From Chitinophaga pinensis (GTDB lineage Bacteria > Bacteroidota > Bacteroidia > Palsa-965), in assembly GCA_943372645.1 (NCBI GenBank), contig CALRZN010000007.1:8687-72686 (forward strand): DNA of 64,000 bases, in the 5' to 3' direction. Numbering within the stretch: position 1 is the stretch's first letter; every line of letters begins with the position of its first letter. Below, in pieces: positions 6,770-21,761 of this stretch. The position numbers were made by a program, and so were the translations under genes. The notes under the pieces were generated by a model. The model had not been told where the DNA came from, searched no databases, and saw nothing but the letters and a program-made list of their open reading frames with translations.

Positions 6770-7813
6770 ATGCAGGAGGGAACAAAAATTCTGGTTACAG
6801 GCGGCGCGGGCTACATCGGTTCGCATACCATCATCAGTTTACTGAACCAGGGTTATGAAGTAGTATCGCTTGATAATTACTCCAACTCCGTTCCTGAAAC
6901 CTACCGCCGTATTACAACCATCACCGGCAAAACACTTACTGCCGTGGAAGGCGACTGCTGCGATAAAGCAACGCTTGAAAAACTGTTCCGGGAGCACCGC
7001 ATCGGTGGCATCATTCATTTTGCCGCGTACAAATCGGTTCCCGAATCGGTGGACAAACCGCTGCTGTATTACCGCAATAATATTCTTTCACTTGCAACAC
7101 TGCTTGAAGTAAGTACCAAAGCCGGGGTGCGTGAATTTATTTTTTCCTCCTCCTGCTCGGTGTATGGTAACATCGGTATACTTCCGGTTTCGGAAGAAAC
7201 GCCGCTGGGCGAATTACAATCGCCGTATGCCGAATCGAAACTGATCGGTGAAAACCTGCTTCAGTATTTTGCCGTGCAAACGCCCGGACTGAAAACCATT
7301 GCGTTGCGTTATTTCAACCCGGTGGGTGCGCATCCGACCGGTTTCAACGGCGAACTGCCCCGCAACCGGCCGAATAACCTGGTTCCGTTTATCACGCAGG
7401 TGGCCATCGGAAAATTTCCGGAGCTGGCTGTTTACGGCGATGATTACGATACCCGCGATGGTTCGTGTATCCGCGACTATGTGCATGTGTGCGACATTGC
7501 TGATGCGCATGTGGCTGCATTGCAATACCTGGCTGCGCGTAAAAATGAAAACTATTTCGACATCATCAACCTGGGAACAGGAACCGGTGTAACCGTTTTT
7601 GAAGCCATACGCGCTTTTGAAAATGAAAACGGGCAAAAGCTGAATTACAATGTCGTGCCGCGCCGTACCGGTGATGTGGCCGCCATTTATGCCGACAGCC
7701 GCAAAGCAGAAACATTGCTGCACTGGAAGCCAAAACATGGTATCGGTGAAATGATGCGCAGCGCGTGGAAATGGGAACAGCACCTGCACGATGAACAGGC
7801 AGCTTCTCATTAA
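6770..7813 (+). CDS. galE: UDP-glucose 4-epimerase
   Basis: GGAGYIGSHT, HFAAYKSVPESV, YAESK (YxxxK), LRYFNPVGAH and DGSCIRDYVHV motifs. Confidence 0.96.
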   Translation: MQEGTKILVTGGAGYIGSHTIISLLNQGYEVVSLDNYSNSVPETYRRITTITGKTLTAVEGDCCDKATLEKLFREHRIGGIIHFAAYKSVPESVDKPLLYYRNNILSLATLLEVSTKAGVREFIFSSSCSVYGNIGILPVSEETPLGELQSPYAESKLIGENLLQYFAVQTPGLKTIALRYFNPVGAHPTGFNGELPRNRPNNLVPFITQVAIGKFPELAVYGDDYDTRDGSCIRDYVHVCDIADAHVAALQYLAARKNENYFDIINLGTGTGVTVFEAIRAFENENGQKLNYNVVPRRTGDVAAIYADSRKAETLLHWKPKHGIGEMMRSAWKWEQHLHDEQAASH

Positions 7814-7827
7814 ACTAAAGGGAATCT

Positions 7828-8598
7828 CTAAAACTTTATTTTCAGTTTCGCCAGCACTTCGTGTTTTTTCCGCCGCGGAATTTCGAATGCCTGTCCTGAT
7901 TTGAGCGAAACAAAACACGGTTCTCCTTTCGAATATTCTTTTACAAAATTCAGGTTCAGGATTATGGTTTTGCTGATGCGGATAAACGCCTCGTTGTCGG
8001 CCAGGAACTCTTCAAATTCACGCAACGTTTTCGTAAGCAGGTGCTTTTCACCGCTTTCGGTATAGAGGTACGAATAGCGGTCGGCGGCTTCAATGTGTGT
8101 AACCGTTGACATACGTACAAAAACCACCTGCTCGTTTTCGTGTACCGTAATGCTTTTTTCAATGGCGTTTGAATCAAGATTCTGCAGCAGGTTGATGATC
8201 TGTTTTCCCGCGGTGCCGGTAGCTTCCAGGTTTTCCACGGCCCGCTGTACTGCGCGCTGCAGGTCGGCCACTTCTACCGGTTTCAGCAGGTAATCAAGCG
8301 CACTGAATTTGATGGCGGTAAGTGCATAATGGCTGTAACTGGTTACAAAAACAATCTGGAACGGCAGTTTCGTTCCGAAGCGGCGCAACAGGTCAAAGGC
8401 TGTTCCCTCGGGCATCTGGATATCGAGGAACACGAGGTCGGGCTGGTGTTCGCGGATGAGTTTTTCTGCGCTGTCAATGCCGTCACCCATAGCCACTACG
8501 TTTACTTCCGGGCAGAATTTTTCAAGTAACGTACGGAGCAGTTTCAGGCTGCGCTCCTCATCATCTACAAGAATTACATTCAGCTTAGTGTTCGTCAT
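7828..8598 (-). CDS. LytTR-family response regulator (copy 1)
   Basis: Receiver domain DDE / FLDIQMP / VTSY / YLLKP, plus LytTR domain (HIEAADRYS, FIRISKTIILN). Start placed at MTNTKL, overlapping the kinase stop. Confidence 0.93.
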   Translation of the reverse strand: MTNTKLNVILVDDEERSLKLLRTLLEKFCPEVNVVAMGDGIDSAEKLIREHQPDLVFLDIQMPEGTAFDLLRRFGTKLPFQIVFVTSYSHYALTAIKFSALDYLLKPVEVADLQRAVQRAVENLEATGTAGKQIINLLQNLDSNAIEKSITVHENEQVVFVRMSTVTHIEAADRYSYLYTESGEKHLLTKTLREFEEFLADNEAFIRISKTIILNLNFVKEYSKGEPCFVSLKSGQAFEIPRRKKHEVLAKLKIKF

Positions 8599-11581
8599 AA
8601 AACAGCGTATCAAAATTAAATGTTATCTGCACCCGTGTACCGCACACATTACCCGCATCATCGAGCAGATCGGTAATCAGGATTTCCGCATGATCGGCAT
8701 CTGGAATCAGGTTCAGAATCTGCAGGCGTTCTTTATTCAGGCTCATGGCTACAGGCTGGTGGCGTACACCTTCTATACGTATTGCAGCCGAACGGGTTCG
8801 CCCGATACCGTTATCTTCAATTACGGCAATGATGTTATCGGCGGAACGTTTCACCTCAATTTTCAGTTTCCCGCTGCGTTCATTTTTCAGCGGCAGCAGG
8901 CCATGCCATATTGCATTTTCAACATACGGCTGAAACAGCATGGGCAATACACGCACCTCGTTCATTTTCAGACCGGGATCAATATTGATTTCATACGTAA
9001 ACCGTTTGTCAAACCGCAGCTGCTCCAGGTCGAGGTACATGCGCAGCATTTCGAGTTCACTTTCCAGCGTGTGTGTTTTTTCCCGGGCGTGATTGAGTAC
9101 AAGACGCATCAGCTTCGAAAACTTGGCGAGGTAATCATACGCAATCTGCGTTTCCTGTTCGAGAATGTAGGTCTGTATGGAGTTGATCACATTAAAAATA
9201 AAATGCGGGTTCATCTGCGCCTGCAGGGCCGAAAGGCGGTATTCGGCAATCATGGCATTGATGCGGGTCTGTTCTTTTTCTTTCCGCCGCACCCTGCGCA
9301 GTACGATGCGGAAACCGAAGAAAATCAGAAGCGTTACGGCCACAGAAAGCAACACAAGAAACCACTCCCGTTTCCAGAATGGCTTGTGAATGGTAAACGA
9401 AAACACAAGCGGCACACCTTTGCTCATGCGGTCACCGTGCTGCACAGTAACTTCCAGTTCGTAATTACCGGGAGCCAGGTTGTTCAGTTCAATCACATCC
9501 GAAAGCTGCCTGCGCACTAAGCTGTCTTCACCAATCAGTTTGTATTTCAGCCACACATTTTTCCGGTCTTTGAATGTGAGCAGGTCAAACTGCAGGCTGA
9601 GGTGGTTATCGGAATAATCCAGCTCAATCGGGCTTCCGGCACGGAGCGGTAAAATTTTATCACCGCTGTTGGCCTGGCGCAGGTAAAATCGCACCGGTGT
9701 TTCATTGCGCAGTTCATAACCCACCGGGAAACGGAAAAGTCCTTCCGTGGAGTTGCCGTAAATAAACTCCCCGTCGCTTTGCAGTTGAGTTATTTTATTA
9801 GCCGGCAGCCCGTTACTTGTAGTGTAAGTTGCAAACGGTGTACGCCCGTCGGGTTCGGTAATGCGGATCAGCCCGTTTTGTGTGCTGAGCCAGATGTTGT
9901 GCATGTTATCTTCGAGTATATCCAGCACTTCATCGGTACCGAGTGCAGACGGATCGTACAGGTGCTCCACACTGTCGCCTTTCAGTTCGAGCAGGCCTTC
10001 CAGTTTGGATGCGATAAGTATGCGGCCCGAAGATGTACGTACAATTTTACCGGTTCCACTGCGGATTCCGGGCATCCACGACCAGGCCCCGGTACCGGTA
10101 TTAATTTTCAGTAATCCTTTGCGGCCACTATAAAGCAACATATCCGGCGAAAACGGGTAAATAAAACTGCCTGTATTCGGCAGGTTCTCCGCAAAACCGG
10201 AAACCGTGTTGCCGTCAATTTTATTTACCGCTCCAAATTGCGCAGCCCAGGTGGTGCCGTCAGCTGCAGGAGCAAAACATGAAGCGCCGGGCAGATCGCG
10301 CTGCTTGTCGGCATACTCCAGGAAATGTATTTCTGAAAATGTGGAATCGGTACGGAGCACTGCATCGCGGCCGCCGATATACCAGTTACTTCCGCTCACC
10401 AGGAGGTCGCTGAACACATACGGACGTTTCAGTGCAAATGTTTTGCGGGTTATCCCGTTGCGCCCGATGCGGCAGATTTCGTTCGGGTGCGATGAAACAT
10501 ACAGTTTCCCGTTTACCACTTTTACAAGGTCAGCCACTTTGCCAAGCCCGGGCTGGTTTGCATACCCAACAATGTATTTTGACTGGGAATAAAAAACACC
10601 GTTTTCGAGCGTGGTGCACCACAGCCCGCCTTCGTGGTCTTCACAAATGCCGGCAACGGAATATCCGGCAAGAGAATGAATACAATAGGATGTATCTGCC
10701 GGATCGGGATAATAATACAAACCGCTTTTATAACTGCCCACCCACAGGCTGTTTGCAGCATCTACGCGCAGTGCAAGTGTTACCTGCGGCATTTTCATGA
10801 TGGTGTATTGCATATCTGCTTTTAAACAGATGATGTAATTGTGTACACTCAGGTACGTGGTGCCGTTTGCATCGGAAGCCGAAAGCACGCGCCAGTCGGG
10901 TGTTGCATTTTCCATGTACGGCAGGCTGATCTGCAGGTCTTTTTTGCCGTTGCGTATGCGCACACCGATATGGCCGGTGCTTTGGATAAGTGCTTTGCCC
11001 GGAGCCGAATTGTAAAGCACGGTTTTCAGGTGCCGGTATTCACTGCCGGTGCGTTCAAAATAATACATCGTTTGCCCGTCGGAAGGCCCCGTGAGTGTAT
11101 CGCAGGTGCCATTGCTCTGCACACGCGTGATGCGTTTATTGCCGTGCAGCAGCAAGGCGGAATCACCAAGAAATTCAAGTCCGTAAGTCAGGTCAATTTT
11201 TGCACGTTGCATTTCCACAAACGGTTTGCTGAATACCGTTTCAACAAGTGAGTCACCTTTAATGGTCAGGATGCGGTTATCCGTAGTAACAAGCCAGATG
11301 CGGTTTTTATTGTCCCTCGTAATTACATAACATCCTTTTTCCGGAAGTCCGTTCTGCCTGCTGTATACTTTCAGCGAAGCACCGTTGTAGCGGCAGAGTC
11401 CGCTTTCGGTACTGATCCACATGTACCCCTGCTGATCCTGGATAGCGTTATAACACTCCATCGAGGGAAACGGAATACTGTTACCGATATTTTCAAAAAA
11501 GAGTTGCTGCGCTGTTAACCGGTTTACCGTAACCAGTAAAAACAAAAACAGGAAAATCGGGTTACGGTTAATTTTCAGCAT
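8585..11581 (-). CDS. LytS/YehU-type sensor histidine kinase with periplasmic beta-propeller and Y_Y_Y domains (copy 1)
   Basis: Signal peptide, repeated D-x-x-G-x-x-W propeller blades, LNNLAPGNYEL (Y_Y_Y), TM helix, ALQAQMNPHFIFN, LFQPYVENAIWHG and EDNGIG. TATTTTTG box (minus strand) at 11594-11601 supports the ATG at 11581. Confidence 0.93.
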   Translation of the reverse strand: MLKINRNPIFLFLFLLVTVNRLTAQQLFFENIGNSIPFPSMECYNAIQDQQGYMWISTESGLCRYNGASLKVYSRQNGLPEKGCYVITRDNKNRIWLVTTDNRILTIKGDSLVETVFSKPFVEMQRAKIDLTYGLEFLGDSALLLHGNKRITRVQSNGTCDTLTGPSDGQTMYYFERTGSEYRHLKTVLYNSAPGKALIQSTGHIGVRIRNGKKDLQISLPYMENATPDWRVLSASDANGTTYLSVHNYIICLKADMQYTIMKMPQVTLALRVDAANSLWVGSYKSGLYYYPDPADTSYCIHSLAGYSVAGICEDHEGGLWCTTLENGVFYSQSKYIVGYANQPGLGKVADLVKVVNGKLYVSSHPNEICRIGRNGITRKTFALKRPYVFSDLLVSGSNWYIGGRDAVLRTDSTFSEIHFLEYADKQRDLPGASCFAPAADGTTWAAQFGAVNKIDGNTVSGFAENLPNTGSFIYPFSPDMLLYSGRKGLLKINTGTGAWSWMPGIRSGTGKIVRTSSGRILIASKLEGLLELKGDSVEHLYDPSALGTDEVLDILEDNMHNIWLSTQNGLIRITEPDGRTPFATYTTSNGLPANKITQLQSDGEFIYGNSTEGLFRFPVGYELRNETPVRFYLRQANSGDKILPLRAGSPIELDYSDNHLSLQFDLLTFKDRKNVWLKYKLIGEDSLVRRQLSDVIELNNLAPGNYELEVTVQHGDRMSKGVPLVFSFTIHKPFWKREWFLVLLSVAVTLLIFFGFRIVLRRVRRKEKEQTRINAMIAEYRLSALQAQMNPHFIFNVINSIQTYILEQETQIAYDYLAKFSKLMRLVLNHAREKTHTLESELEMLRMYLDLEQLRFDKRFTYEINIDPGLKMNEVRVLPMLFQPYVENAIWHGLLPLKNERSGKLKIEVKRSADNIIAVIEDNGIGRTRSAAIRIEGVRHQPVAMSLNKERLQILNLIPDADHAEILITDLLDDAGNVCGTRVQITFNFDTLFYDEH

Positions 11582-11831
11582 AAGCAGATGAAACAAAAAT
11601 AAGGGGATTTTTCAATTCGCACCGGAAACATTTTATTTTAAGTATTTCATCCGTTACACGATTATCAAAAATAAAATCGAAGCAATAAACGAAGCAAAAT
11701 GAATACAGCACCGGGCATGTTGATTAAAAATGATACTGTGCGAACGGTTTAACGTTACACACCTTATAAATAGTTACGTGAACGGCCTGCATTTCCATTT
11801 ACCCCGAAAATATGCAGCACTATAAACGCAA

Positions 11832-11887
11832 TGTGCAAAAAATGTAACCAGTGGTAATAATGAATCCTGCAATTCAAAATAGCTTTG
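11832..11887 (+). promoter_or_regulatory. 26-bp conserved operator plus -7 promoter box (copy A)
   Basis: TGTGCAAAAAATGTAACCAGTGGTAA at 11832-11857, 22-nt gap, TAGCTTTG at 11880-11887. Confidence 0.7.
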
Positions 11888-11947
11888 TTAAAGCGATTAT
11901 ACCTTTATCGCAAACCGAACTGGAACATTTAAATACTGCCTGGAACT

Positions 11948-12082
11948 ATGAACTGTGCTACACCGGTTTTCATAGCATCGCCGAATAATCTTCTCCCCGG
12001 ATTTATTTCGTGTTGCAGCAAATGTACATGCAAAATGCGTGTAGCAGGCATTCCCGGACCCGTTAAAAACATTACCCCATGA
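11948..12082 (+). CDS. Possible 44-aa Cys-rich small ORF
   Basis: MNCATPVFIASPNNLLPGFISCCSKCTCKMRVAGIPGPVKNITP. First ATG after promoter A; its stop overlaps the next ATG (ATGA). No homology evidence. Confidence 0.25.
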   Translation: MNCATPVFIASPNNLLPGFISCCSKCTCKMRVAGIPGPVKNITP

Positions 12083-13032
12083 ATATTCATCTGAAGGTTA
12101 AACAAATGTACCTGGACTGGAACTATACCAGTACAGTTACGCATCCGCCGGGAGATGCGATGACCTGGCACGGCAACTGGAAAAGCCCGGCCGGCAAAGC
12201 GGAAACAACAACTGTACGCGCAAAAAACAAAACATCGCGTGCTGCCCGCAAAGCGCGCTACAAAAACTGGATCAATACCATTTTCTTTCTCACACCGGAA
12301 CAAACAGACCATACGATTACTTTGTTCAGCGATGCGGACAACGCAACAACAACTGTTTATCCGCCGGCTTCAGCAAAACAATCCAAAACGATACGTTCTT
12401 TTTTCAAAGGGCTTCTCCTCAACCGGATGTTTATTTACTGTGTGGCAGCAGGCCTGCTTGGTATGGTGATCAGTTCATTCGGCTGTAACCCGCAGCAGCT
12501 CGCCCCGGATGCTTACACCCGCTGGGTTGAATCGGAAAGTAACGGGCTGCACCTGAAGCATACGGTTAACGGCATCACGTTCCGGCTGCAGTATAAACCG
12601 CACTTGTATATTTTGCTGAAACAACACCAGGGCCACATTCCCGATGTGCAGAACGAACTTCAGCAACTTGCGGGTCTGCAGTATTATGATTTTTCGGTGA
12701 GCAGTACCACCGGTGAAACGTTGCTTGAAGGTGGTGATCCCGATGATCAGAAATCGAATTCACAGGTAGAATATTTCACATCAAATATCAAAAAGAATAT
12801 CTGCCTGGTAGAAAACGGCGACACACTGCCCTGCGAACTCAGTTATTTCGAACGCAATTACGGTGCCTCCGAAGGCAACCTGCTGGTGCTCGGTTTCCGC
12901 GAAAATTCACCGGCATCTGAACCAGCCGACCGCACATTTATTTACCAGGACGATGTTTTTAATTCGGGACAGATTAAACTCATGATAAAAGGCAATTCCA
13001 TCGCTTCCGTTCCACAGCCCCGCCTGAATTAA
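12079..13032 (+). CDS. Hypothetical lipoprotein-like protein; true start may be 12427
   Basis: Hydrophobic stretch and lipobox-like SFGC follow Met117. The C-terminal region (LQYKP, GDTLPCELSYFERNYG) resembles conserved Bacteroidota hypothetical lipoproteins. Confidence 0.7.
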   Translation: MNIHLKVKQMYLDWNYTSTVTHPPGDAMTWHGNWKSPAGKAETTTVRAKNKTSRAARKARYKNWINTIFFLTPEQTDHTITLFSDADNATTTVYPPASAKQSKTIRSFFKGLLLNRMFIYCVAAGLLGMVISSFGCNPQQLAPDAYTRWVESESNGLHLKHTVNGITFRLQYKPHLYILLKQHQGHIPDVQNELQQLAGLQYYDFSVSSTTGETLLEGGDPDDQKSNSQVEYFTSNIKKNICLVENGDTLPCELSYFERNYGASEGNLLVLGFRENSPASEPADRTFIYQDDVFNSGQIKLMIKGNSIASVPQPRLN

Positions 13033-13109
13033 GCTGCGGAACTGCCTCTGAAAACAAAAAAAGCCCATTTAACACAATTAAAATATTGAATATCAATAAA
13101 TTACAATAA

Positions 13110-13165
13110 TGTGCTTTTTTTGTAGCCTGTGGTAAGCCGGGATATTCCAAAAGCATCTAATTTTA
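13110..13165 (+). promoter_or_regulatory. 26-bp conserved operator plus -7 promoter box (copy B)
   Basis: TGTGCTTTTTTTGTAGCCTGTGGTAA at 13110-13135, 22-nt gap, TAATTTTA (one mismatch to TAnnTTTG) at 13158-13165. Confidence 0.7.
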
Positions 13166-13233
13166 GGTAATCGGAAAAAAGTACAATTCCGATTCAACAA
13201 TCGAAGAAGCTGAAACGTGAAAAACGAAATACA

Positions 13234-13521
13234 ATGAAAACGAAACTCCTTAGTACCCTCTTGTTACTTGTTTTCGGAGCGGTGCTTATGACAAGCAGTT
13301 GCCGTAAGTTCGAAACAGACGATATTATTGATCCGATAGTTGCCGACACACCAACTGACGGCGGTAACCGCAGCGCTGTTCCGATGACTGATCAGATTGA
13401 ACAGCCGGTACTGCGTGGTTCCGAAAATGGTGCAGAAGAAAAACCGATTATTGCCGATACGCCTGCAGAAGGTAATCGCACCGTAGTTATTCCGGAAGTA
13501 ATACGGAATAACCAGAAATAA
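13234..13521 (+). CDS. Small lipoprotein (95 aa) with a duplicated ADTP-x-x-G-NR motif
   Basis: MKTK, hydrophobic core, TSSC lipobox; PIVADTPTDGGNR and PIIADTPAEGNR; A-rich leader with its own promoter and a downstream terminator. Confidence 0.8.
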   Translation: MKTKLLSTLLLLVFGAVLMTSSCRKFETDDIIDPIVADTPTDGGNRSAVPMTDQIEQPVLRGSENGAEEKPIIADTPAEGNRTVVIPEVIRNNQK

Positions 13522-13656
13522 AATTATCAGCCGGCTAAAGGCAGCCCCGTAAGCTGCCCGGTTTCTTACCTGCCCCCAAAACTGCAGGTAAAAACACCAC
13601 CGGTTTTACTTTACAGTGCCGCACGAACACTGCTGCTGTAAATTTTTAACCACCGA

Positions 13657-13687
13657 TAAAAAAGGCAGCCCATGGCTGCTTTTTTTA
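13657..13687. terminator. Bidirectional intrinsic terminator
   Basis: A-run, GGCAGCC-cat-GGCTGCT hairpin, T-run, between convergent genes. Confidence 0.8.
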
Positions 13688-13691
13688 TGTT

Positions 13692-14456
13692 TCAGAATTT
13701 CATTTTCAGGCGGTTCAGTATTTCCTGCTTTTTGCGGCGGGCTATTTCGTAAGATTGCCCTGTTTTGAGTGTTACAATGGACGGATCGCCTTTGGAATAT
13801 TCTTTAATGTGATTGATGTTGAGTATGGTGTTTTTGCTGATCCGCATAAACAGTTCAATATCCTGCAGGAACAGTTCAAACTCTTTCAGCGTGCGCGATA
13901 CCATGTATTTTGCATTGTCAACTGTATGCACATACGAATACCGGTCGAACGCTTCAATGCAGGTAATCTGCGCCAGGCTGATGAACACCACGGTTTCGTT
14001 ATGGTGTACTGAAATTTTCTGTTCCACGGCATCTGAATCCAGGTTATGCAGCAGGTTTACGATATGTTTATCGTTGCTTACCCGGTCGCGCGCTTTCTGC
14101 AGTGCGCGGCTGACGGCGTTCCGCAGTTCATTCAGATCAACCGGTTTCAGCAGGTAATCAACTGCACTGAAACGGATGGCATTAATGGCATAATGATCGT
14201 AGCTGGTAACAAAAATAATATCAAACGGAATGTTTTCAAACCGCCGCAGCAGGTCAAACGCATTGCCGTCGGGCATCTGGATATCCAGGAATACGAGATC
14301 CGGATGATGGGTATTAATCAGTGTAAATGCATTGTTAATATCTTCCGCTGTAGCAACAATTTTCAGCTGCGGGCAGATTTTTTCAACCAGGTTCTGCAAC
14401 ACCCGGATACTTTTTTCTTCATCATCAACAATAATGGCGTTCAATGTTTCAATCAT
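13692..14456 (-). CDS. LytTR-family response regulator (copy 2)
   Basis: DDEE, FLDIQMP, VTSY, YLLKP and FMRISKNTILN; clear paralog of 7828-8598. Confidence 0.93.
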   Translation of the reverse strand: MIETLNAIIVDDEEKSIRVLQNLVEKICPQLKIVATAEDINNAFTLINTHHPDLVFLDIQMPDGNAFDLLRRFENIPFDIIFVTSYDHYAINAIRFSAVDYLLKPVDLNELRNAVSRALQKARDRVSNDKHIVNLLHNLDSDAVEQKISVHHNETVVFISLAQITCIEAFDRYSYVHTVDNAKYMVSRTLKEFELFLQDIELFMRISKNTILNINHIKEYSKGDPSIVTLKTGQSYEIARRKKQEILNRLKMKF

Positions 14457-17439
14457 ACGAATCGGTTAAAGCAGTTAATGTAATTTCAACACGAGTGCCG
14501 CAGGCGTTTCCTGCAGCATCTTTTAGGTCAATAATATGGATGCCGGATGAATCGAAACCGGGAACCTGCGAAAGAATCTGCAGGCGTTCCTGGTTGAGGC
14601 TTACGGCAACGGAGTGGTGTGACTTGTGACGTGAAATCCGTCCTGCCGCTTCGCGCCCGATGCCGTTATCTTCAATGATTACGAAAACCGAATCAGTACC
14701 GTTTTTCCGGAACGCGATTTTCAGTTTACCCGGACGGATGTTTTTGAGCGGCAACAGTCCATGCCAGATGGCATTTTCCACGAACGGCTGAAACAGCATG
14801 GGCAGCACGCGGAAATCATGCGTATTCAATTCGGGATCAACATCTATTTCACATATAAACCGTTTTTCAAAACGAAGTTGTTCCAGGTCAATGTACATGG
14901 TAAGCAGTTCCAGTTCGCTTTCGAGTGTATGTGTTTTCTGCCGCGCCATGTTCAGCACAATGCGCATCAGTTTGGAAAAACGGGCCAGGTAATCATACGC
15001 CACCAGGGTATCGTTTTCAAGAATATACACCTGTATGGAGTTGATGACATTAAAAATAAAATGCGGGTTGATCTGCGTTTGCAGAGCCGAAAGCCGGTAT
15101 TCTGCAATCATGGTATTGATGCGTGCTTTTTCTGTTTCTTTCCGGCGGATGCGAATTAAAAAATAACGAAACAGCAGGTAGATAATGCAGGCAAGTAAAA
15201 ACCCGGAAAGAAAATAGAACCACGATGACTGCCAGAAAGCCGGCCTGATTTCAAAAACAAACCGTATGGAACGCTCCCTGAATGAACGGCCACCTGCCTG
15301 GGGCCATACAAGCAGTTCGTAACTCCCCGGGGGCAAATTGTAAAACATTAATTTTCCATCCGGGCTTTTGCCGGAAAGCTGGTCTTCACCCATAAGCTGG
15401 TATTCCAGCTGCGCCGGATTTTTTCCCCGGTAACTCAGGACATCGCAATCGAAACTGATCGTTCGCGTACCTGATTCAAAAACATAGGATGATTTCGTTT
15501 GCGAAACGCTCAGGCCATTTCCTGAAACCTGAACAACTTTCAGCAGCGGGTTGGTGTTTGATGTAAAATCAATATTCCGGTTGAACCGGTAAAGTCCACC
15601 TGATGAATTACAATACAGGTAATTTTCATCACAAACGAGATCGGTCATATCTCCGCGCGGAAAACCATCTTCGATATGAAATACTTTATACGAGTAGCCT
15701 TTTGCAGACCGGGTTATTTTAAAGATCGTATTATAATTGCATACCCAGATATTGGAATTTTTATCTTCAGTAATATCTACGGCCGATCCGCCAAAATCAA
15801 AATCGGAAAAAGGTTCGAGGTGCATTCCATCGGCTGCAATCCGGTACAATCCCAGTTCAGAACACGCAATAAGTACCTGCCCGTTTTTTAATCTGCAGAT
15901 ATCTGAAATAGCAGGATTTTCAGGACAGGTAATGGCCCGATGCACTCCAGTCAAAACGTTGTACCGGGCAAGTCCTTTTCTGCCCCCGTAAATCAGCCAG
16001 TTCCCGGTATCTGCAATAATTGCCAAAGCGCGGTTTGATTTAGGTTCCAGTTTTTCTTCGACATTGTTCGTATTGAAACGCATGAGTAGGTCATACTGTA
16101 TTGCCCATAACGAACCGTTACCTGCAGTTGCAGTTGCAATTAGTGTTGCAGGGATATTACTGTTTTTCTCATCGTAAATGGTATTCTGAAGTTTAAACGC
16201 CGAATCAGTAAATACACTGCCTCCCACACCACCCAGTATCCATCCATTATCATATTTCATGATAGTTTTAAAATCAAATACGGGCGGTGCCGCTATTGTG
16301 ACCTCACGAGGTTTCCCGTTTTTTATTACAAACAATTGATTTTTTTGATTTCCAGCAAAAACAGTACTCCCTTCATTGGTAAGCATAGCTGCGCCCTTTT
16401 CCAGGTCGTGAATATCTGCATACGATACGATGTATTTGCTTTTCGAATAAGCCACCGAATTATTAAGTGTAAAACACCATATCCCGTTTTCATGATCCTC
16501 CAGTACACCTCCGACAGCCTGGTCGCGTAACGACCAGACGACTTCATCCGGTTTATCCGGGCTGGGATAGTAATAAAGTCCGCTCTTGTATGTGCTTACC
16601 CATAAGCCATTGTCTTTATCGCAAAACAGCGACAACACCCTGTTCCCGATCGGGTATAAACGATAGGAAAGATCAGATGCTACCTGGACAACATAATTAT
16701 TGGCGGCAAAATAGGTGTTTCCGATATTATCGTTTGCAGTAACAAAACGCCAGTCGGCTGCAAACTTATCTGTAAAAGGAATGCGTATGGTTATCTTCCT
16801 GTTTCCTTTCATGACATTTACCAGAAAATAACCCTTCTGAGAAGGGAACTTTCGGGAAACCGAAGCCCTGTTTTCTGACGACTTATAATGAATAAACCGG
16901 TCGTTTTCCCATTGCAGGTAGTAATATACCGAATCCGACTCGGCAGCGCCATAACGTTTATGTGAACCGGTTTTTAAGTTAATCACCTTTGTATTGATAT
17001 TACCGGTAAGTAACAGCGCTGTGTCACCTAAAAAATCAAGTGCATAGTAAATTTCATAGACATTTTTTTTCGCATCAGTAAATGCTTTGCTGCAGGGTAA
17101 CTGAATAAAACTGTCATTCTGAAGCTGCATAATACGGGAAGCCGATGTGAGTGCCAGTAATTTCCCGTCACGGGTTTCTGCCAGGTCATAAACTGAAATA
17201 TCATTAAGCCCGTTATGCTTACCGTAGGAAACGGTCTCCCTGCCATTGTAACGGCTGATTCCACGTTCTGTCGCGATCCAGATATATCCGTTTTTGTCCT
17301 GAAGCATGTGATAACATTCGTCTGTAGGCAACTCCAGGCGCGATTCCATACTTTCAAAAAGGAGATGCTGTCCGGTGAGTTTTACCGGTAACAAAATCAG
17401 TAAACAAATAATTGCCTGGAGGCTGGAAAAAAGTCGCAT
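14449..17439 (-). CDS. LytS/YehU-type sensor histidine kinase with beta-propeller and Y_Y_Y domains (copy 2)
   Basis: ALQTQINPHFIFN, LFQPFVENAIWHG, EDNGIG and FYNLPPGSYEL. Start placed at MRLFSS (17439), with a minus-strand TATATTTG box at 17453-17460. Confidence 0.93.
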   Translation of the reverse strand: MRLFSSLQAIICLLILLPVKLTGQHLLFESMESRLELPTDECYHMLQDKNGYIWIATERGISRYNGRETVSYGKHNGLNDISVYDLAETRDGKLLALTSASRIMQLQNDSFIQLPCSKAFTDAKKNVYEIYYALDFLGDTALLLTGNINTKVINLKTGSHKRYGAAESDSVYYYLQWENDRFIHYKSSENRASVSRKFPSQKGYFLVNVMKGNRKITIRIPFTDKFAADWRFVTANDNIGNTYFAANNYVVQVASDLSYRLYPIGNRVLSLFCDKDNGLWVSTYKSGLYYYPSPDKPDEVVWSLRDQAVGGVLEDHENGIWCFTLNNSVAYSKSKYIVSYADIHDLEKGAAMLTNEGSTVFAGNQKNQLFVIKNGKPREVTIAAPPVFDFKTIMKYDNGWILGGVGGSVFTDSAFKLQNTIYDEKNSNIPATLIATATAGNGSLWAIQYDLLMRFNTNNVEEKLEPKSNRALAIIADTGNWLIYGGRKGLARYNVLTGVHRAITCPENPAISDICRLKNGQVLIACSELGLYRIAADGMHLEPFSDFDFGGSAVDITEDKNSNIWVCNYNTIFKITRSAKGYSYKVFHIEDGFPRGDMTDLVCDENYLYCNSSGGLYRFNRNIDFTSNTNPLLKVVQVSGNGLSVSQTKSSYVFESGTRTISFDCDVLSYRGKNPAQLEYQLMGEDQLSGKSPDGKLMFYNLPPGSYELLVWPQAGGRSFRERSIRFVFEIRPAFWQSSWFYFLSGFLLACIIYLLFRYFLIRIRRKETEKARINTMIAEYRLSALQTQINPHFIFNVINSIQVYILENDTLVAYDYLARFSKLMRIVLNMARQKTHTLESELELLTMYIDLEQLRFEKRFICEIDVDPELNTHDFRVLPMLFQPFVENAIWHGLLPLKNIRPGKLKIAFRKNGTDSVFVIIEDNGIGREAAGRISRHKSHHSVAVSLNQERLQILSQVPGFDSSGIHIIDLKDAAGNACGTRVEITLTALTDSYD

Positions 17440-17488
17440 AGGATCACCAAACCAAATATAAGGACATTTTCGGGCGGCAAAAGCAGCA

Positions 17489-17544
17489 TGTACATTTTTC
17501 GTAGTGAACGGTAAGTATATCCGGTTAATGTGCACGTAGATTTG
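17489..17544 (+). promoter_or_regulatory. 26-bp conserved operator plus -7 promoter box (copy C)
   Basis: TGTACATTTTTCGTAGTGAACGGTAA at 17489-17514, 22-nt gap, TAGATTTG at 17537-17544. Confidence 0.72.
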
Positions 17545-17550
17545 CTGTAC

Positions 17551-17625
17551 AGATTGCAACAACTATCAAGCAGGTATGAATCCCGTCATGCTGCTCTCCT
17601 AGATACTGATTAATGTCAGTTTTTT
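17551..17625 (+). ncRNA. Candidate small RNA or mini-ORF transcript
   Basis: Lies downstream of promoter C; hairpin at 17569-17595; weak terminator ACTGA-ttaatg-TCAGT-TTTTT at 17605-17625. Confidence 0.3.
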
Positions 17626-17715
17626 ATTATTAACCTGGCCGTTAATGAACACATCGTTGTCTGTGTGGTCAATAACAGAAGGTGAAATGAATTTGAAAAA
17701 TGGATCCAATGAGTG

Positions 17716-17771
17716 TGTACATTTTTCGTAGTAAACGGTAATAAGAATACATATAAGCAAATCTAATTTTG
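17716..17771 (+). promoter_or_regulatory. 26-bp conserved operator plus -7 promoter box (copy D)
   Basis: TGTACATTTTTCGTAGTAAACGGTAA at 17716-17741 (25/26 identical to copy C), 22-nt gap, TAATTTTG at 17764-17771. Confidence 0.75.
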
Positions 17772-17797
17772 AAAACACTAACTCAAACTCTTTTAAC

Positions 17798-18946
17798 ATG
17801 AAAACGTACAAAAAAAAGGCATTGACAATTACGCTAGGTCTATTTGGTATAACAAGCCTGAGCGCACAGCAGTGGGTGGATATTCCATCTACCACACATA
17901 TCCGAAATAATAATGCCGGAAGCACTGTTATCGGAGCAACTACATTGCCTGCGGGATTATCATACACTCCCAAACTTTATGTATATAGCGGCAACACAAC
18001 CGGATATGGTGGTGTATTGTTTGATGTTCCTACTGCCCCGTTTTACCAGGGAGATGGAAAGGCCCGGTTTCATTTTAATCGGGCAAATACAAATTTTGAA
18101 AACTTTATTTCATTTGAAAGCGGCAACACATACAAATGGCTAATGGGTATGGACAATGAAGTTGGTGACAACTTTTACATATTCAGAAACAGCAATAAGA
18201 TACTCACGATGAAACAGGATGGAACTACTATTTTTTCGTCAAACAATACAACAGATAGGCTTACAATTAAAAATGATGGTGTAATTCATTTCAATGGCGC
18301 TGGTGGATCTACCAGTACGAGTACAGGCCCGGCTAACGGATTACCGTATGGCACTTCGTATCTTGGTTTTAACACAACAAGGGATCCCGCCAATGGAAAC
18401 TGGACAAAATATACGGATGGGGCAAATAATGGCAGTAGCGTAATCTGGGGAACGATTGGCGGATGGCTTTGTTTTTCTCCAATGTCTTCAGTTAATGGTT
18501 CATCTAACGGAACAACTACTGACGCAGCAGTAAGTGCGAATACAACAATGAAGATGCGCTGGAACGACAATCTTACCGGTACCCATAAAGGCCAGGTAAT
18601 GATCGGAGAAAAGAGCATTACAAGTGGTGCCCATACTGATTTCAAATTAAGTGTTGATGGAAAAATTCTTGCAACTGAAATTTATGTTACTCAACAGAAT
18701 TGGGCGGATTATGTTTTCGAAAAAGATTATAAAATGCTGAGTCTCCCTGAACTGGAAAAATACATCAGTATCAATAAACATCTGCCTAATGTTCCTTCTA
18801 CTGCTGAAATGAAGTCTGACGGAAATAATGTTGCTAATACCGATCAGATTCTGCTCGAAAAAATTGAAGAGCTGACCCTTTATTTGATTGAGCAGCAGAA
18901 AAAAATTGATGCTCTTGAGAAAAACTTAAAAACCAACCAGCAATGA
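17798..18946 (+). CDS. Secreted tail-fibre-like protein with a C-terminal chaperone-like/coiled-coil domain
   Basis: Signal peptide; G/T/N-rich beta repeats; C-terminus KLSVDGKILATEI..WADYVF..HLPNVPS..LLEKIEELTLYLIEQQKKI, typical of this widespread Bacteroidota family. Confidence 0.75.
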   Translation: MKTYKKKALTITLGLFGITSLSAQQWVDIPSTTHIRNNNAGSTVIGATTLPAGLSYTPKLYVYSGNTTGYGGVLFDVPTAPFYQGDGKARFHFNRANTNFENFISFESGNTYKWLMGMDNEVGDNFYIFRNSNKILTMKQDGTTIFSSNNTTDRLTIKNDGVIHFNGAGGSTSTSTGPANGLPYGTSYLGFNTTRDPANGNWTKYTDGANNGSSVIWGTIGGWLCFSPMSSVNGSSNGTTTDAAVSANTTMKMRWNDNLTGTHKGQVMIGEKSITSGAHTDFKLSVDGKILATEIYVTQQNWADYVFEKDYKMLSLPELEKYISINKHLPNVPSTAEMKSDGNNVANTDQILLEKIEELTLYLIEQQKKIDALEKNLKTNQQ

Positions 18947-20586
18947 GGACCGTTTCATTTATTTTCCGATCATCACTTACTATCTGTTTGTTGATGATTC
19001 TATTTTCAACGACCTATGCACAGGTAACAGTACAATGCAATAGCTGCGCCGGAACCGGAACTTATGCAGGTTCAACCGCATACTGTAATACGATTCAAAT
19101 ACCTGGTCAGTTTATACCGGTTAACTCCAATGCACCCTGGGAACTAATATATGAAGAGGAGTTTGACGATCCTGACCTTCATTTCGATGTTGAATGGGAT
19201 TCTCCATATAATATGACTCAAGAGCCAACAGCATACAATAATTATGATGATGCTTATTTATACAGTTGCATCAGACGGAATAATCTAGAATTTGGCAGCT
19301 CTGTTATTGGGACAAATACTGAAACCTGGGTTAATCTAAAAACAAAATATGAGCCCGGTTCTGTTTGTGATTGGGTCGAATTTGATGCGAATTTACAACC
19401 AATCGTTCATCAAACCACAAGAGATTACACATTGCCTCAACTTAACACCAAAGCAATATATGGTCCGGGGAAATTTGAAATTCATTGCAAAGTACCACAG
19501 ATATCTGGTCAATGGCCCGCATTTTGGTTATATGAAAATGACGGGGGAGTGCATACTGGACAAGAAATTGATGTGTTCGAAATCAAACAGGATGCAATGC
19601 ATGCAAATTGCTCAATTGATCCAAATTGTACTAACCCAGAATACACAACTGTAAGTCAAGCAGGCAAACGCATGATGATGACTACTCATTCAAATCCGCT
19701 TCTTCTCGCTGAACCCTGTACTCCTCAAATGTGTTATATCAATAGCGAGCCTTTCAGTAATGGATGGCATACATTCACATTAGTTTGGGATGAAAACTAC
19801 ATGCAATGGTTTATGGATGGGAATTTAGTTTTCGAAAGGACTAGGATGTCTTATTATTCTCCAGGTAATTATACTTACAAAGAGTTAACCTTTCCTTCAC
19901 CCAAAATAGGAATGGAAATTAAAATTGGAAGTATTGTTTGGACTGATGAGAATATGTTATACATCAATGGTTCAGGGCAAAATATTTGTGGTTCCCCTAT
20001 CGCACCAAATGATTTTCTTGTTGACTATGTAAGGGTGTGGAAAAGAGGCTGCAACAATCAGCCCCGAACCTTAAAATATGATTATGACCCAATTACATTT
20101 TATGATGCAAATGATGCTATTGTGCAGGCAGGAACTATTGATTTTTCCGCAACAAGTCCCGCCTGGGAAGTCAATTCAAACCAGGTATTGAAAGTCGGCG
20201 CAATAAACGAAATCAAGATTGTAAATTTTGAAGCAAAACTGGGTTGTGACTTTACAGCAACGATAAACAATTGTGATGAATTGGTTTACGGCAGAAAGGC
20301 TGAAGCGGGTGATGAATCAAGTGAAATTAAGCAAGAAAAAACAACCCCGCTATTCAGTATCAGCCCAAATCCGAGTAGCACAACTATCAAGTTAAAATCT
20401 CAAAGTATTGTCCGGAAAGCAAATATTGAGATATTTGATATGCTTGGGAAACGAGTTTTTTTTGTCAATCAGGAAATATTAAAAGATACAGAATTAAATA
20501 TTACGTCATTAAATCAGGGAGTTTATCTTTTGCGAATTTCAAACGATGCAGGCTTCCTGGAAACACATCAAATCGTAAAAAACTAG
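18943..20586 (+). CDS. GH16 glycoside hydrolase with a T9SS type A sorting domain
   Basis: WPAFWL, catalytic EIDVFE (ExDxxE), WHTFTLVW and VDYVRVW; C-terminal ISPNPS...IFDMLGK...GVYLLRI. Confidence 0.88.
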   Translation: MRTVSFIFRSSLTICLLMILFSTTYAQVTVQCNSCAGTGTYAGSTAYCNTIQIPGQFIPVNSNAPWELIYEEEFDDPDLHFDVEWDSPYNMTQEPTAYNNYDDAYLYSCIRRNNLEFGSSVIGTNTETWVNLKTKYEPGSVCDWVEFDANLQPIVHQTTRDYTLPQLNTKAIYGPGKFEIHCKVPQISGQWPAFWLYENDGGVHTGQEIDVFEIKQDAMHANCSIDPNCTNPEYTTVSQAGKRMMMTTHSNPLLLAEPCTPQMCYINSEPFSNGWHTFTLVWDENYMQWFMDGNLVFERTRMSYYSPGNYTYKELTFPSPKIGMEIKIGSIVWTDENMLYINGSGQNICGSPIAPNDFLVDYVRVWKRGCNNQPRTLKYDYDPITFYDANDAIVQAGTIDFSATSPAWEVNSNQVLKVGAINEIKIVNFEAKLGCDFTATINNCDELVYGRKAEAGDESSEIKQEKTTPLFSISPNPSSTTIKLKSQSIVRKANIEIFDMLGKRVFFVNQEILKDTELNITSLNQGVYLLRISNDAGFLETHQIVKN

Positions 20587-20605
20587 TATTAATCTTATGC
20601 TAACC

Positions 20606-20640
20606 AGCGGTTGCCCCAAAAAGGCAGCCGCTATTTTTTT
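20606..20640 (+). terminator. Intrinsic terminator overlapping the convergent stop codon
   Basis: AGCGGTTGCC-loop-GGCAGCCGCT followed by a T-run. Confidence 0.7.
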
Positions 20641-21761
20641 ACCCCGGTAAAAGCAAACCTCCCCTTCCACCCTAAAAACCACCCCTCAAAATACCGGTAA
20701 CTCAGTTTGCTGATAACAACCGTAATCCCCAGCGCCAGCAAGGTATCCACCAGCAGCACCTGCCACAGTTCGGTGTTGATACCCAGCTTACGCGTTAGCG
20801 TAGTGGCAATGAGAATTCCAATGAAATGCGTACAGTACAACCCGTAAGTAATGAGTCCTAGTTTTGAAATGATTTTAAAACTACCGGTTTTAAACAGCGA
20901 GTGCTGCGCGTAACATTGCTCGAGGATGAGGAATGCGATGAGTATGGCGATAAACAGGCGTTCGAATATGCGGATGCCGGCGTTTGCGAATAACACTTCG
21001 TCGCGGAAAAAGAAAATGAGTACAAAAAGCAGCCAGGCCGTGGCGATAAGGTACTTCGGTGTGGCGGCGACGCGTGCGCGGAATGCAGGAACCGTTTGAA
21101 TGAACCACGCCGCAAATGCGCCCACGGTCATGTCGCCGATGCACGACAGCGTATGGAATTCGTGCATTACCGGTGTATCGGACAGCGCGCGGAAAACAAG
21201 ACTTCCGGTGATGATGATTGAAAACGGAATCCAAAGTTTTTTCACCGGGACAAAAAAGATAACGAGCGGCCACACGAGGTAAAACTGTTCTTCAATGGCC
21301 ACGCTCCACAGCACACCGAGTACCGATGAATCGGGCGGACCGTTTGCGATAAAATCAAAGTTGTTGGTAAAAGTGAGGTACGATAACAGGTGGGCTGTTT
21401 CTGCCGGTGTTTGTCCGAAAGCCTGTTTGATCAGCGGAAACGCCACAAAACCAAACAGCACCATGAGGTAAAACAAGGGCCAGATACGCAAAATGCGCCG
21501 CATCCAGAATTTACCCAGGCTGATTTGTCCGTTTGCTTTTTTTTCTTCCAGCAGCAGGTACGTGATGAGAAAACCGCTGAGCACAAAAAAGAAATTTACG
21601 CCGAGGTTGCCGTTGCCGAACACATCGTTTTTTACAAAATGATACGCCGGGTTTGTTTTGATCGTTTCGGAAGCGGTGTAAAAGCTGTGATAGAAAAACA
21701 CCGAAAGAAACGACAGGAACCGCAACCCGTCGAGGTTTTCAAAATACAGCGTCTTTTTCAT
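20631..21761 (-). CDS. Acyltransferase family 3 (OafA-like O-acyltransferase)
   Basis: LDGLR, GVNFFFVLSGFLIT, RRILRIWPL and WSVAIEEQFY motifs. Confidence 0.93.
   Translation of the reverse strand: MKKTLYFENLDGLRFLSFLSVFFYHSFYTASETIKTNPAYHFVKNDVFGNGNLGVNFFFVLSGFLITYLLLEEKKANGQISLGKFWMRRILRIWPLFYLMVLFGFVAFPLIKQAFGQTPAETAHLLSYLTFTNNFDFIANGPPDSSVLGVLWSVAIEEQFYLVWPLVIFFVPVKKLWIPFSIIITGSLVFRALSDTPVMHEFHTLSCIGDMTVGAFAAWFIQTVPAFRARVAATPKYLIATAWLLFVLIFFFRDEVLFANAGIRIFERLFIAILIAFLILEQCYAQHSLFKTGSFKIISKLGLITYGLYCTHFIGILIATTLTRKLGINTELWQVLLVDTLLALGITVVISKLSYRYFEGWFLGWKGRFAFTGVKK

Follow-up and report, generated by a model that had tools for sequence, protein, structure and literature searches.

What does a very small lipoprotein do between two kinase/regulator pairs, and could it be the signal that they sense? 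The question is raised by the gene at positions 13234 to 13521 of a stretch of Chitinophaga pinensis DNA (contig CALRZN010000007.1; the whole stretch analysed, 64,000 nucleotides (nt) long, is referred to here as the window), which an earlier note had read as a possible precursor of a peptide signal with one variant for each of two sensors, in analogy with the Agr and Com systems. Its product of 95 amino acids (aa), called the mini-lipoprotein below, almost certainly comes from a genuine gene, and this gene is probably a member of the regulon of the signalling island in which it lies. The protein is unannotated and lineage-specific. The explanation we favour, to which as a whole we give a probability of roughly one in three, is that it helps the neighbouring kinases, or feeds back on them as a ligand, under the control of their system, and does not act as a diffusible signal; if it does act on the sensors, it would be a variant of the small envelope modulators that serve their own two-component system.

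The gene and its parts are as follows:
13234..13521, + strand: mini-lipoprotein gene (P0001), 95 aa, with homologues in which the frame is retained
13234..13302, + strand: signal peptide with lipobox MTSSC and Cys23, then the invariant RKFETDD (13303-13323)
13333..13383, + strand: motif copy 1, PIVADTPTDGGNRSAVP, residues 34-50, 14/17 identical to distant homologues
13384..13443, + strand: variable acidic linker, 2-3/19 identical to distant homologues over residues 51-69
13444..13494, + strand: motif copy 2, PIIADTPAEGNRTVVIP, residues 71-87
13540..13558, + strand: hairpin after the stop codon, a weak terminator
13660..13690, no strand assigned: GC stem with an A-run on one side and a T-run on the other

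The N-terminus (MKTK, then the hydrophobic stretch LLSTLLLLVFGAVLM, then MTSSC, with the codon of Cys23 at 13300-13302) has the charged start, hydrophobic core and lipobox cysteine of a lipoprotein, a call made by eye and with a simple pattern rather than a trained predictor, and one that agrees with the lipoprotein signal (TSSC) reported before. Position -3 of the lipobox is Thr rather than Leu, as it is in a SusD-like protein, and the segment from T20 to D30 (TSSCRKFETDD) is invariant in 9/9 aligned mini-lipoprotein sequences. The mature protein of 72 residues contains 7 Pro, 14 Asp+Glu and 8 Lys+Arg. For the whole product AlphaFold2 (9-row alignment) returned a mean predicted local distance difference test score (pLDDT) of 56.6, with the signal helix (residues 2-20) as sole secondary structure; the tail, described earlier as acidic, Pro-rich and apparently unstructured, is thus acidic and Pro-rich by composition and, as far as prediction goes, disordered. 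A terminator belonging to the gene can also be recognised, as had been claimed: the hairpin directly behind the stop codon has a weak T-tail, and the stronger stem at 13660-13690 is likely a two-way terminator common to the mini-lipoprotein gene and the convergent regulator gene.

Both copies of the short motif conform to the consensus P-[IV]-x-A-D-T-P-x-[DE]-G-(x)-N-R-x-x-[IV]-P. Aligned with a one-residue gap they are identical at 10/15 residues, six of these ten being encoded by different codons (for example GCC GAC ACA CCA versus GCC GAT ACG CCT), with a nucleotide identity of 32/45; the best ungapped 10-mer self-match (7/10) was reached in 1/2000 shuffles of the mature part. Such synonymous differences had been taken as a sign of selection at the peptide level, and the homologues support this view, the motifs being conserved among them while the linker diverges. 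When the protein is set against its remotest full-length homologues (P0015-17, 57-58% identical), the signal matches at 19/23 positions, the residues after the cysteine at 9/10, motif 1 at 14/17 and the linker at 2-3/19; motif 2 is about 10/17 identical across groups (manual count). Judging from these alignments, two conserved short motifs in a drifting linker are what one expects of linear motifs for binding or processing and not of a chance frame. The idea of two peptide variants for two sensors fares less well: in P0015-17 both motif copies carry the core ADTPTDGENR (the copies being 13/17 identical to each other by manual count) and the 66-aa P0007 has a single copy, so that copy-specific variants are not conserved. 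Other identities of the motif were also considered. O-glycosylation in Bacteroidota takes place at D-(S/T)-(A/I/L/V/M/T), which D-T-P does not fit, and was rejected; a likeness to calcium loops or dockerins was unconvincing by eye.

The family so delimited is very narrow and restricted to one lineage. A search of 5.8 billion clustered proteins returned six clusters with 16 sequences in all, the 95-aa protein included, and a profile search of all 1.84 billion 50%-identity representatives returned 2 proteins. The homologues are 57-91% identical and retain frame, lipobox and motifs; full-length forms measure 95-96 aa, and other differences in length reflect start choice only, except in P0007. No match was found in 60 other genomes, of which 1 shares the genus, 33 the family and 26 the class. 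Peptide-pattern scans of two contig collections (genomes and metagenomes) yielded no true relative, three loci being matched by the lipobox only, one of them SusD-like. Among PDB sequences there was one chance-level match (E 0.16), and the ESM Atlas gave solely unnamed Bacteroidota clusters, at 0.90 or lower. Could the frame then be a chance opening in an intergenic spacer? Pfam has no family for it, and its one NCBIfam match is at chance level (E 0.03; 13 bits, where the cut-off is 712), both of which agree with such an origin, but the retention of frame, lipobox and motifs among homologues down to 57% identity, the region-patterned conservation, and the presence of a promoter-like element and a terminator of its own make it exceedingly improbable. 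Partial evidence for a real gene comes also from a second organism (organism A, introduced below), in which, among the listed 1- and 2-base indels, all fall in the spacers flanking the open reading frame (ORF), at 13064, 13545, 13594, 13609, 13643 and 13668, and none inside it.

Control of the mini-lipoprotein together with the two-component system would run through a 26-nt operator-like element, present four times in the window:
11832..11887, + strand: P1, operator 11832-11857 and -7 box TAGCTTTG at 11880-11887, ahead of the gene for a 202-aa lipoprotein, with a 530-nt leader
13110..13135, + strand: operator-like element of P2, TGTGCTTTTTTTGTAGCCTGTGGTAA, TGTGC-N7-GTAG-N5-GGTAA, ahead of the mini-lipoprotein gene
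13158..13165, + strand: -7 box-like sequence of P2, TAATTTTA, 22 nt past the operator
17489..17544, + strand: P3, operator 17489-17514 and -7 box TAGATTTG at 17537-17544, with a short stretch without convincing gene downstream
17716..17771, + strand: P4, operator 17716-17741 and -7 box TAATTTTG, ahead of genes for a 382-aa secreted protein and a GH16 enzyme

A repeat finder grouped the P2 element with those of P3 and P4, and the P4 operator is 25/26 identical to that of P3. The pattern TGTRC-N7-GTA-N6-GGTAA has five perfect copies in the 5.5-Mb genome, four of which lie in the island within 6 kb, all on the + strand. In Bacteroidota promoters the -7 box is TAnnTTTG, and TAnnTTT(G) is found exactly 22 nt downstream of all five operator copies; when one mismatch at most is allowed there are 19 genome sites, of which the five perfect ones alone have a -7 box. 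The four copies in the window compare with 0.10 expected (at least four in 0/100 shuffles), a comparison in which the clustering and not the count is the evidence, as the pattern was derived from these same sites; the statement that the gene has an operator copy of its own stands on this basis. The TTTG -33 element is absent from the five 22-nt spacers (0/5) and the flanks beyond the 26 nt are not conserved. Spacers without a -33 element fit activator-dependent promoters, in which the activator site is placed at about -35 to -60. LytTR sites usually comprise two 9-11-nt repeats, 11-13 nt apart and without shared consensus (PMC4847170); in the present element TGTRC and GGTAA start 21 nt apart with GTA between them, a geometry compatible with a LytTR site.

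The operator copies point away from the kinase operons and give no sign of an autoinduction of the kinase genes, P3 being a possible exception. A minus-strand TAnnTTTG box (17453-17460) precedes the start codon of kinase 2 by 13 nt, at a distance of 28 nt from the P3 operator, and we may speculate that this operator serves the kinase 2 operon too, i.e. in both directions. The notion of two operator subtypes for two regulators was dropped, P2 matching P1 and P3 equally (18/26 each, manual count). Rfam models run over 11400-18000 gave one weak sub-threshold match, inside a coding region. The fifth operator copy, on contig C12 (about 132809-132863, - strand), lies just after a gene with a tail of T9SS type (T9SS for type IX secretion system) and upstream of ORFs of 49 and 77 aa and of a 243-aa membrane protein with histidine-rich motifs; no kinase or regulator occurs within the 5 kb read around it.

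The placement of the gene between two LytS/LytTR pairs, also part of the earlier note, is confirmed by domain matches on both sides, and organism A keeps the arrangement on one contig. The pairs are:
7828..8598, - strand: response regulator 1, Response_reg + LytTR, 57% identical to regulator 2
8585..11581, - strand: kinase 1, Reg_prop sensor + His_kinase PF06580
13692..14456, - strand: response regulator 2, Response_reg + LytTR, with BtsR and LytR as best NCBIfam models, both below cut-offs
14449..17439, - strand: kinase 2, signal/transmembrane segment, periplasmic Reg_prop sensor of about 710 aa, transmembrane segment and His_kinase PF06580 core

In both kinases two membrane segments enclose a periplasmic Reg_prop domain, about 710 residues long, and the combination of a PF06580 core with a Response_reg/LytTR partner is present in both pairs (His_kinase E 2.7e-21 and 2.1e-22; LytTR E 4.4e-13 and 5.8e-12), regulator 2 matching the BtsR model with E 8.1e-30, below the equivalog cut-off. 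By these domain matches the island kinases belong to the LytS/BtsS class and not to the AgrC/ComD class of peptide-pheromone receptors. They are mutual closest relatives, 39% identical overall (the next best in 20 other genomes reaching 30%), with 30% identity in the sensor and 62.8% in the transmembrane and cytoplasmic part. Kinases of this kind are common: kinase 2 has 14 matches in the source genome and 1 to 14 per relative, 19/21 genomes searched being positive. Neither the operator nor a gene resembling that of the mini-lipoprotein accompanies the nearest paralogous kinase loci of relatives.

The segment 7828-20613 looks like a low-GC accessory island, its G+C content being 0.39-0.46 between 10.5 and 21 kb as against about 0.50 on either side, and the only other genome of the genus has no island at this site, the homologues of the flanking genes being separated there by 1.1 kb. 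Its distal part is occupied by one further unit:
17798..20586, + strand: cargo cassette, encoding the 382-aa secreted protein, for which no family match was found, and a GH16 glycanase that carries a T9SS sorting domain
The interval 7000-21000 was compared with contigs from four public runs. Organism A, recovered from two runs as the same 43,237-base contig, is about 90% identical and colinear with 7000-11634 (434 differences) and 11832-17593, and its contig includes both kinase/regulator pairs, both lipoprotein genes and P3. The interval 11634-11832 is replaced in it by 189 other bases, homology restarting at the first base of the P1 operator, and in a contig of organism B homology restarts at this very base (11832) as well; most of the core is present in organism B too, broken into pieces on short contigs, on which linkage is not visible. 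A drinking-water metagenome contains near-identical fragments, one of them corresponding to 13252-13577 with one difference. At the other end, organism A carries 2297 unrelated bases in place of 17594-20613 (P4, the 382-aa gene and the GH16 gene). The kinases, the regulators and both lipoproteins therefore form a stable core and the cassette an exchangeable part, and the P4 operator, as a near copy of that of P3, suggests that cassettes are exchanged behind a conserved regulated promoter.

How could the mini-lipoprotein take part in such a system? Under the original proposal it would be a precursor, the ADTP..G.NR peptides released from it being sensed by the propellers of both kinases while the LytTR regulators induce its gene. 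The position of the gene between both pairs, together with the island operator ahead of it, would make a positive loop possible; motifs conserved in a non-conserved linker are also what multi-copy peptide precursors present, and the sensors of the two kinases have diverged far beyond their cores. Enterococcal sex pheromones do derive from lipoprotein precursors, and Phr peptides require just general secretion and proteases. The kinases, however, combine a PF06580 core with a large periplasmic propeller instead of the AgrC/ComD membrane sensor, neither of them being a multi-pass receptor of that class, and the regulator scores best with BtsR and LytR, so that of the analogy with Agr and Com the LytTR domain alone is left in common. 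E. coli members of the LytS/BtsS class respond to pyruvate (PMC4847170), and the pathways listed for Bacteroidetes in the relevant excerpt of PMC8895600 do not include Agr or Com. Agr and Com circuits depend on a dedicated processor and a matching leader: no AgrB-like, C39/ABC or other processing or export gene, nor any peptidase gene, was found between 7.8 and 20.6 kb, where the ORFs of at least 200 aa are those of the two kinases, the two regulators, the 202-aa lipoprotein, the 382-aa protein and the GH16 enzyme, besides two antisense frames that fall within coding genes. The leader is a lipobox and not of the double-glycine type, and the mini-lipoprotein should for that reason stay lipid-anchored unless cut. 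A peptide of about 17 residues set free outside could act on a periplasmic sensor after passing back through the outer membrane, a step that the proposal would need; the identical 10-residue core of both copies in distant homologues, the one-copy P0007 and operators that do not face the kinase operons also count against the proposal. We regard a released pheromone as the least likely of the three live readings, and as an improbable one even when counted jointly with a milder form, also new, in which an anchored two-pronged tether would adjust sensor activity by bridging the two different sensors or the halves of a sensor dimer. Of the earlier interpretation, then, the link to the signalling island and the conservation at the peptide level survive, and the Agr/Com analogy and the sensor-matched variants do not.

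In the explanation that we favour, one or both LytTR regulators would switch on the mini-lipoprotein gene through the 26-nt element, located at the position of a -33 box, and the same element would drive the exchangeable cassette of secreted proteins as well as the gene of the 202-aa lipoprotein. Once exported by Sec and lipidated at Cys23, the protein would stay cell-bound, its two motifs, spaced by the variable acidic linker, giving it a short site with two prongs to bind a partner in the envelope. The likeliest partner, and this is the most speculative step, would be the periplasmic propeller of the kinases, as a dimer or as the two paralogues, which a two-motif protein would fit, and the mini-lipoprotein would then be a helper or feedback ligand comparable to PorA for PorY or SaeP for SaeS. 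Accessory proteins of two-component systems are expected to be linked to them, and here the organism A contig keeps the linkage and the promoter element is shared. The specific proposition that the kinases are what it helps is a tentative one, and about as likely is the alternative that the protein is plain output: a product of the regulon, displayed on the surface or in vesicles, with motifs that bind a non-signalling partner (a cargo protein, a glycan-handling partner, a metal or another cell) and no effect on the kinases. That genes of further exported products (202-aa lipoprotein, 382-aa protein, GH16/T9SS enzyme) are placed behind this promoter element as well would be in keeping with this, as would the occurrence of other small repeat-bearing lipoproteins in the source genome, for example two on contig C23 picked up by a crude lipobox scan, and the fact that its other propeller-kinase loci have genes of large secreted proteins as neighbours and lack a mini-lipoprotein. 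Mere output is harder to square with organism A, which retains the mini-lipoprotein along with the kinases while its cargo cassette has been swapped, and with a family that is confined, as far as visible, to island-bearing organisms (0/60 other genomes); nor is there a known outside partner.

Several points weigh against the helper function, and some of them count for output at the same time. Small acidic lipoproteins were found near none of the other propeller-kinase loci examined (0/9 in the source genome and 0/15 from relatives), so that a helper of this sort is no general need of the propeller-kinase class. Proximity is what would tie the operator to the island's LytTR regulators: the 26-nt element does not plainly resolve into two 9-11-nt repeats set 11-13 nt apart, as described for LytTR sites (PMC4847170), and its fifth copy, with -7 box, is far from island genes. 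The residues following the lipobox raise a further difficulty. In Bacteroidota, lipoproteins are exported to the surface by a signal with K at +3 followed by acidic residues, the optimum being C-X-K-(D/E)2-X (PMC5080379), and the invariant C-R-K-F-E-T-D-D of the mini-lipoprotein, with K at +3 and acidic residues at +5, +7 and +8, resembles this signal; a protein flipped to the surface could not contact a periplasmic sensor. Its likeness to the surface lipoproteins of PMC5080379 consists of the lipobox, the K at +3 and several acidic residues, whereas the optimal form is not matched exactly. The N-terminus TSSCRKFE recurs in an unrelated SusD-like lipoprotein from a metagenome. The source genome (5.5 Mb, 100% complete) has no SusD homologues (PF14322, PF07980), which is why its own lipoprotein export consensus is not derivable. 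Prediction of a complex between the periplasmic domain of kinase 2 (residues 25-734, 10-row alignment) and the mature protein (24-95, 9-row alignment), run without controls, gave 0.10 and 0.15 against a mark of 0.32 and counts neither for nor against the helper function.

Comparison with known systems helps to place these possibilities. The closest precedent for a helper is found within the phylum, in Porphyromonas gingivalis, where PorA binds PorY in the periplasm (PMC12152298): a small exported envelope protein that is a member of the regulated system acts there on the kinase from the periplasmic side. PorA differs in being a T9SS cargo that acts through a folded C-terminal domain, whereas the mini-lipoprotein is lipid-anchored and has its two short motifs in a tail for which disorder is predicted; PorXY, furthermore, is not a LytS/LytTR system. 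The BtsS/BtsR (YehU/YehT), YpdA/YpdB and LytS/LytR systems have the PF06580 core and the LytTR output domain in common with the island, but their sensors are multi-pass and respond to small metabolites (PMC4847170), in contrast to the long periplasmic Reg_prop domain of the island kinases, and no small lipoprotein partner is known for them. With AgrD/AgrC/AgrA and ComC/ComD/ComE the island shares a small gene adjacent to those of a kinase and of a LytTR regulator, as well as what would be a promoter-proximal activator site just upstream of the core promoter; it differs from both by kinase class, sensor, lack of AgrB/ComAB, lipobox leader and BtsR/LytR-like regulators. Small envelope modulators of their own two-component system include the lipoprotein SaeP for SaeS, MgrB for PhoQ and CpxP for CpxA. 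These resemble the mini-lipoprotein in small size, envelope location, a gene adjoining or controlled by the system, and feedback logic, although they have no sequence relation to it and their kinases are of other classes; to our knowledge the two-motif disordered design combined with a propeller sensor has no counterpart among them.

Propeller-sensor LytS-type kinases and LytTR regulators are numerous in the group, and our literature search found no functional study of such systems; among work on propeller/LytTR systems or on peptide pheromones of Bacteroidota it found no study of a locus of this type. The island offers a compact handle on them, as it combines two paralogous sensors, a private promoter element with five genome copies, an exchangeable enzyme cassette and a tiny two-motif protein. 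If the mini-lipoprotein acts on the sensors, domains resembling carbohydrate sensors can accept a protein or peptide ligand; were a released peptide to prove the right answer, it would constitute the first peptide autoinduction circuit of Bacteroidota and the first peptide ligand of a Reg_prop-type sensor. If it does not act on them, it is a further envelope protein confined to its lineage, and of modest interest.

The second lipoprotein gene of the island has a different history:
12424..13032, + strand: 202-aa lipoprotein ('lipo200'), downstream of P1
Homologues of lipo200, 23-37% identical, occur in 21/35 genomes of the family (a count that includes the source genome, G000, and the unpublished G030, locus L027); they align from residues 5-27 in 26/27 matches, the last from residue 83, and their frames measure 199-258 aa. 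In 18/19 loci the homologue lies directly upstream of the gene for a large protein that starts with ...TGGPSQPE..., the 19th ending at a contig edge, and likewise in 18/19 loci it follows a protein of about 175 aa, which in the one example scanned is OmpH-like (E 2e-21); the large neighbour has a weak sub-threshold match to the SpvB N-terminal model. The order in relatives (loci L022-L040) is thus a protein of about 245 aa, the OmpH-like protein, the lipo200 homologue and the large protein, and no kinase or regulator was flagged at these loci by simple sequence tags. It therefore seems that the copy in the window was removed from that operon and placed behind P1, a relocation that says nothing direct on the mini-lipoprotein. 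Between P1 and lipo200 (11888-12423, about 530 nt) a frame is open from the ATG at 12079 (317 aa); a 44-aa Cys-rich ORF (11948-12082) overlaps this ATG by ATGA, and at 12201 three bases (AAA) are inserted in frame in organism A. The interval may be leader RNA, code for an N-terminal extension or contain a small gene.

Two further observations concern the source genome at large. Without SusD homologues, this Bacteroidota-type genome nonetheless has T9SS cargo and 14 propeller-kinase matches. On contig C23 (24405-25141, - strand), the crude lipobox scan mentioned above located two adjacent small lipoprotein-like ORFs of 86 and 108 aa with a repeated KDS(M/L)M.

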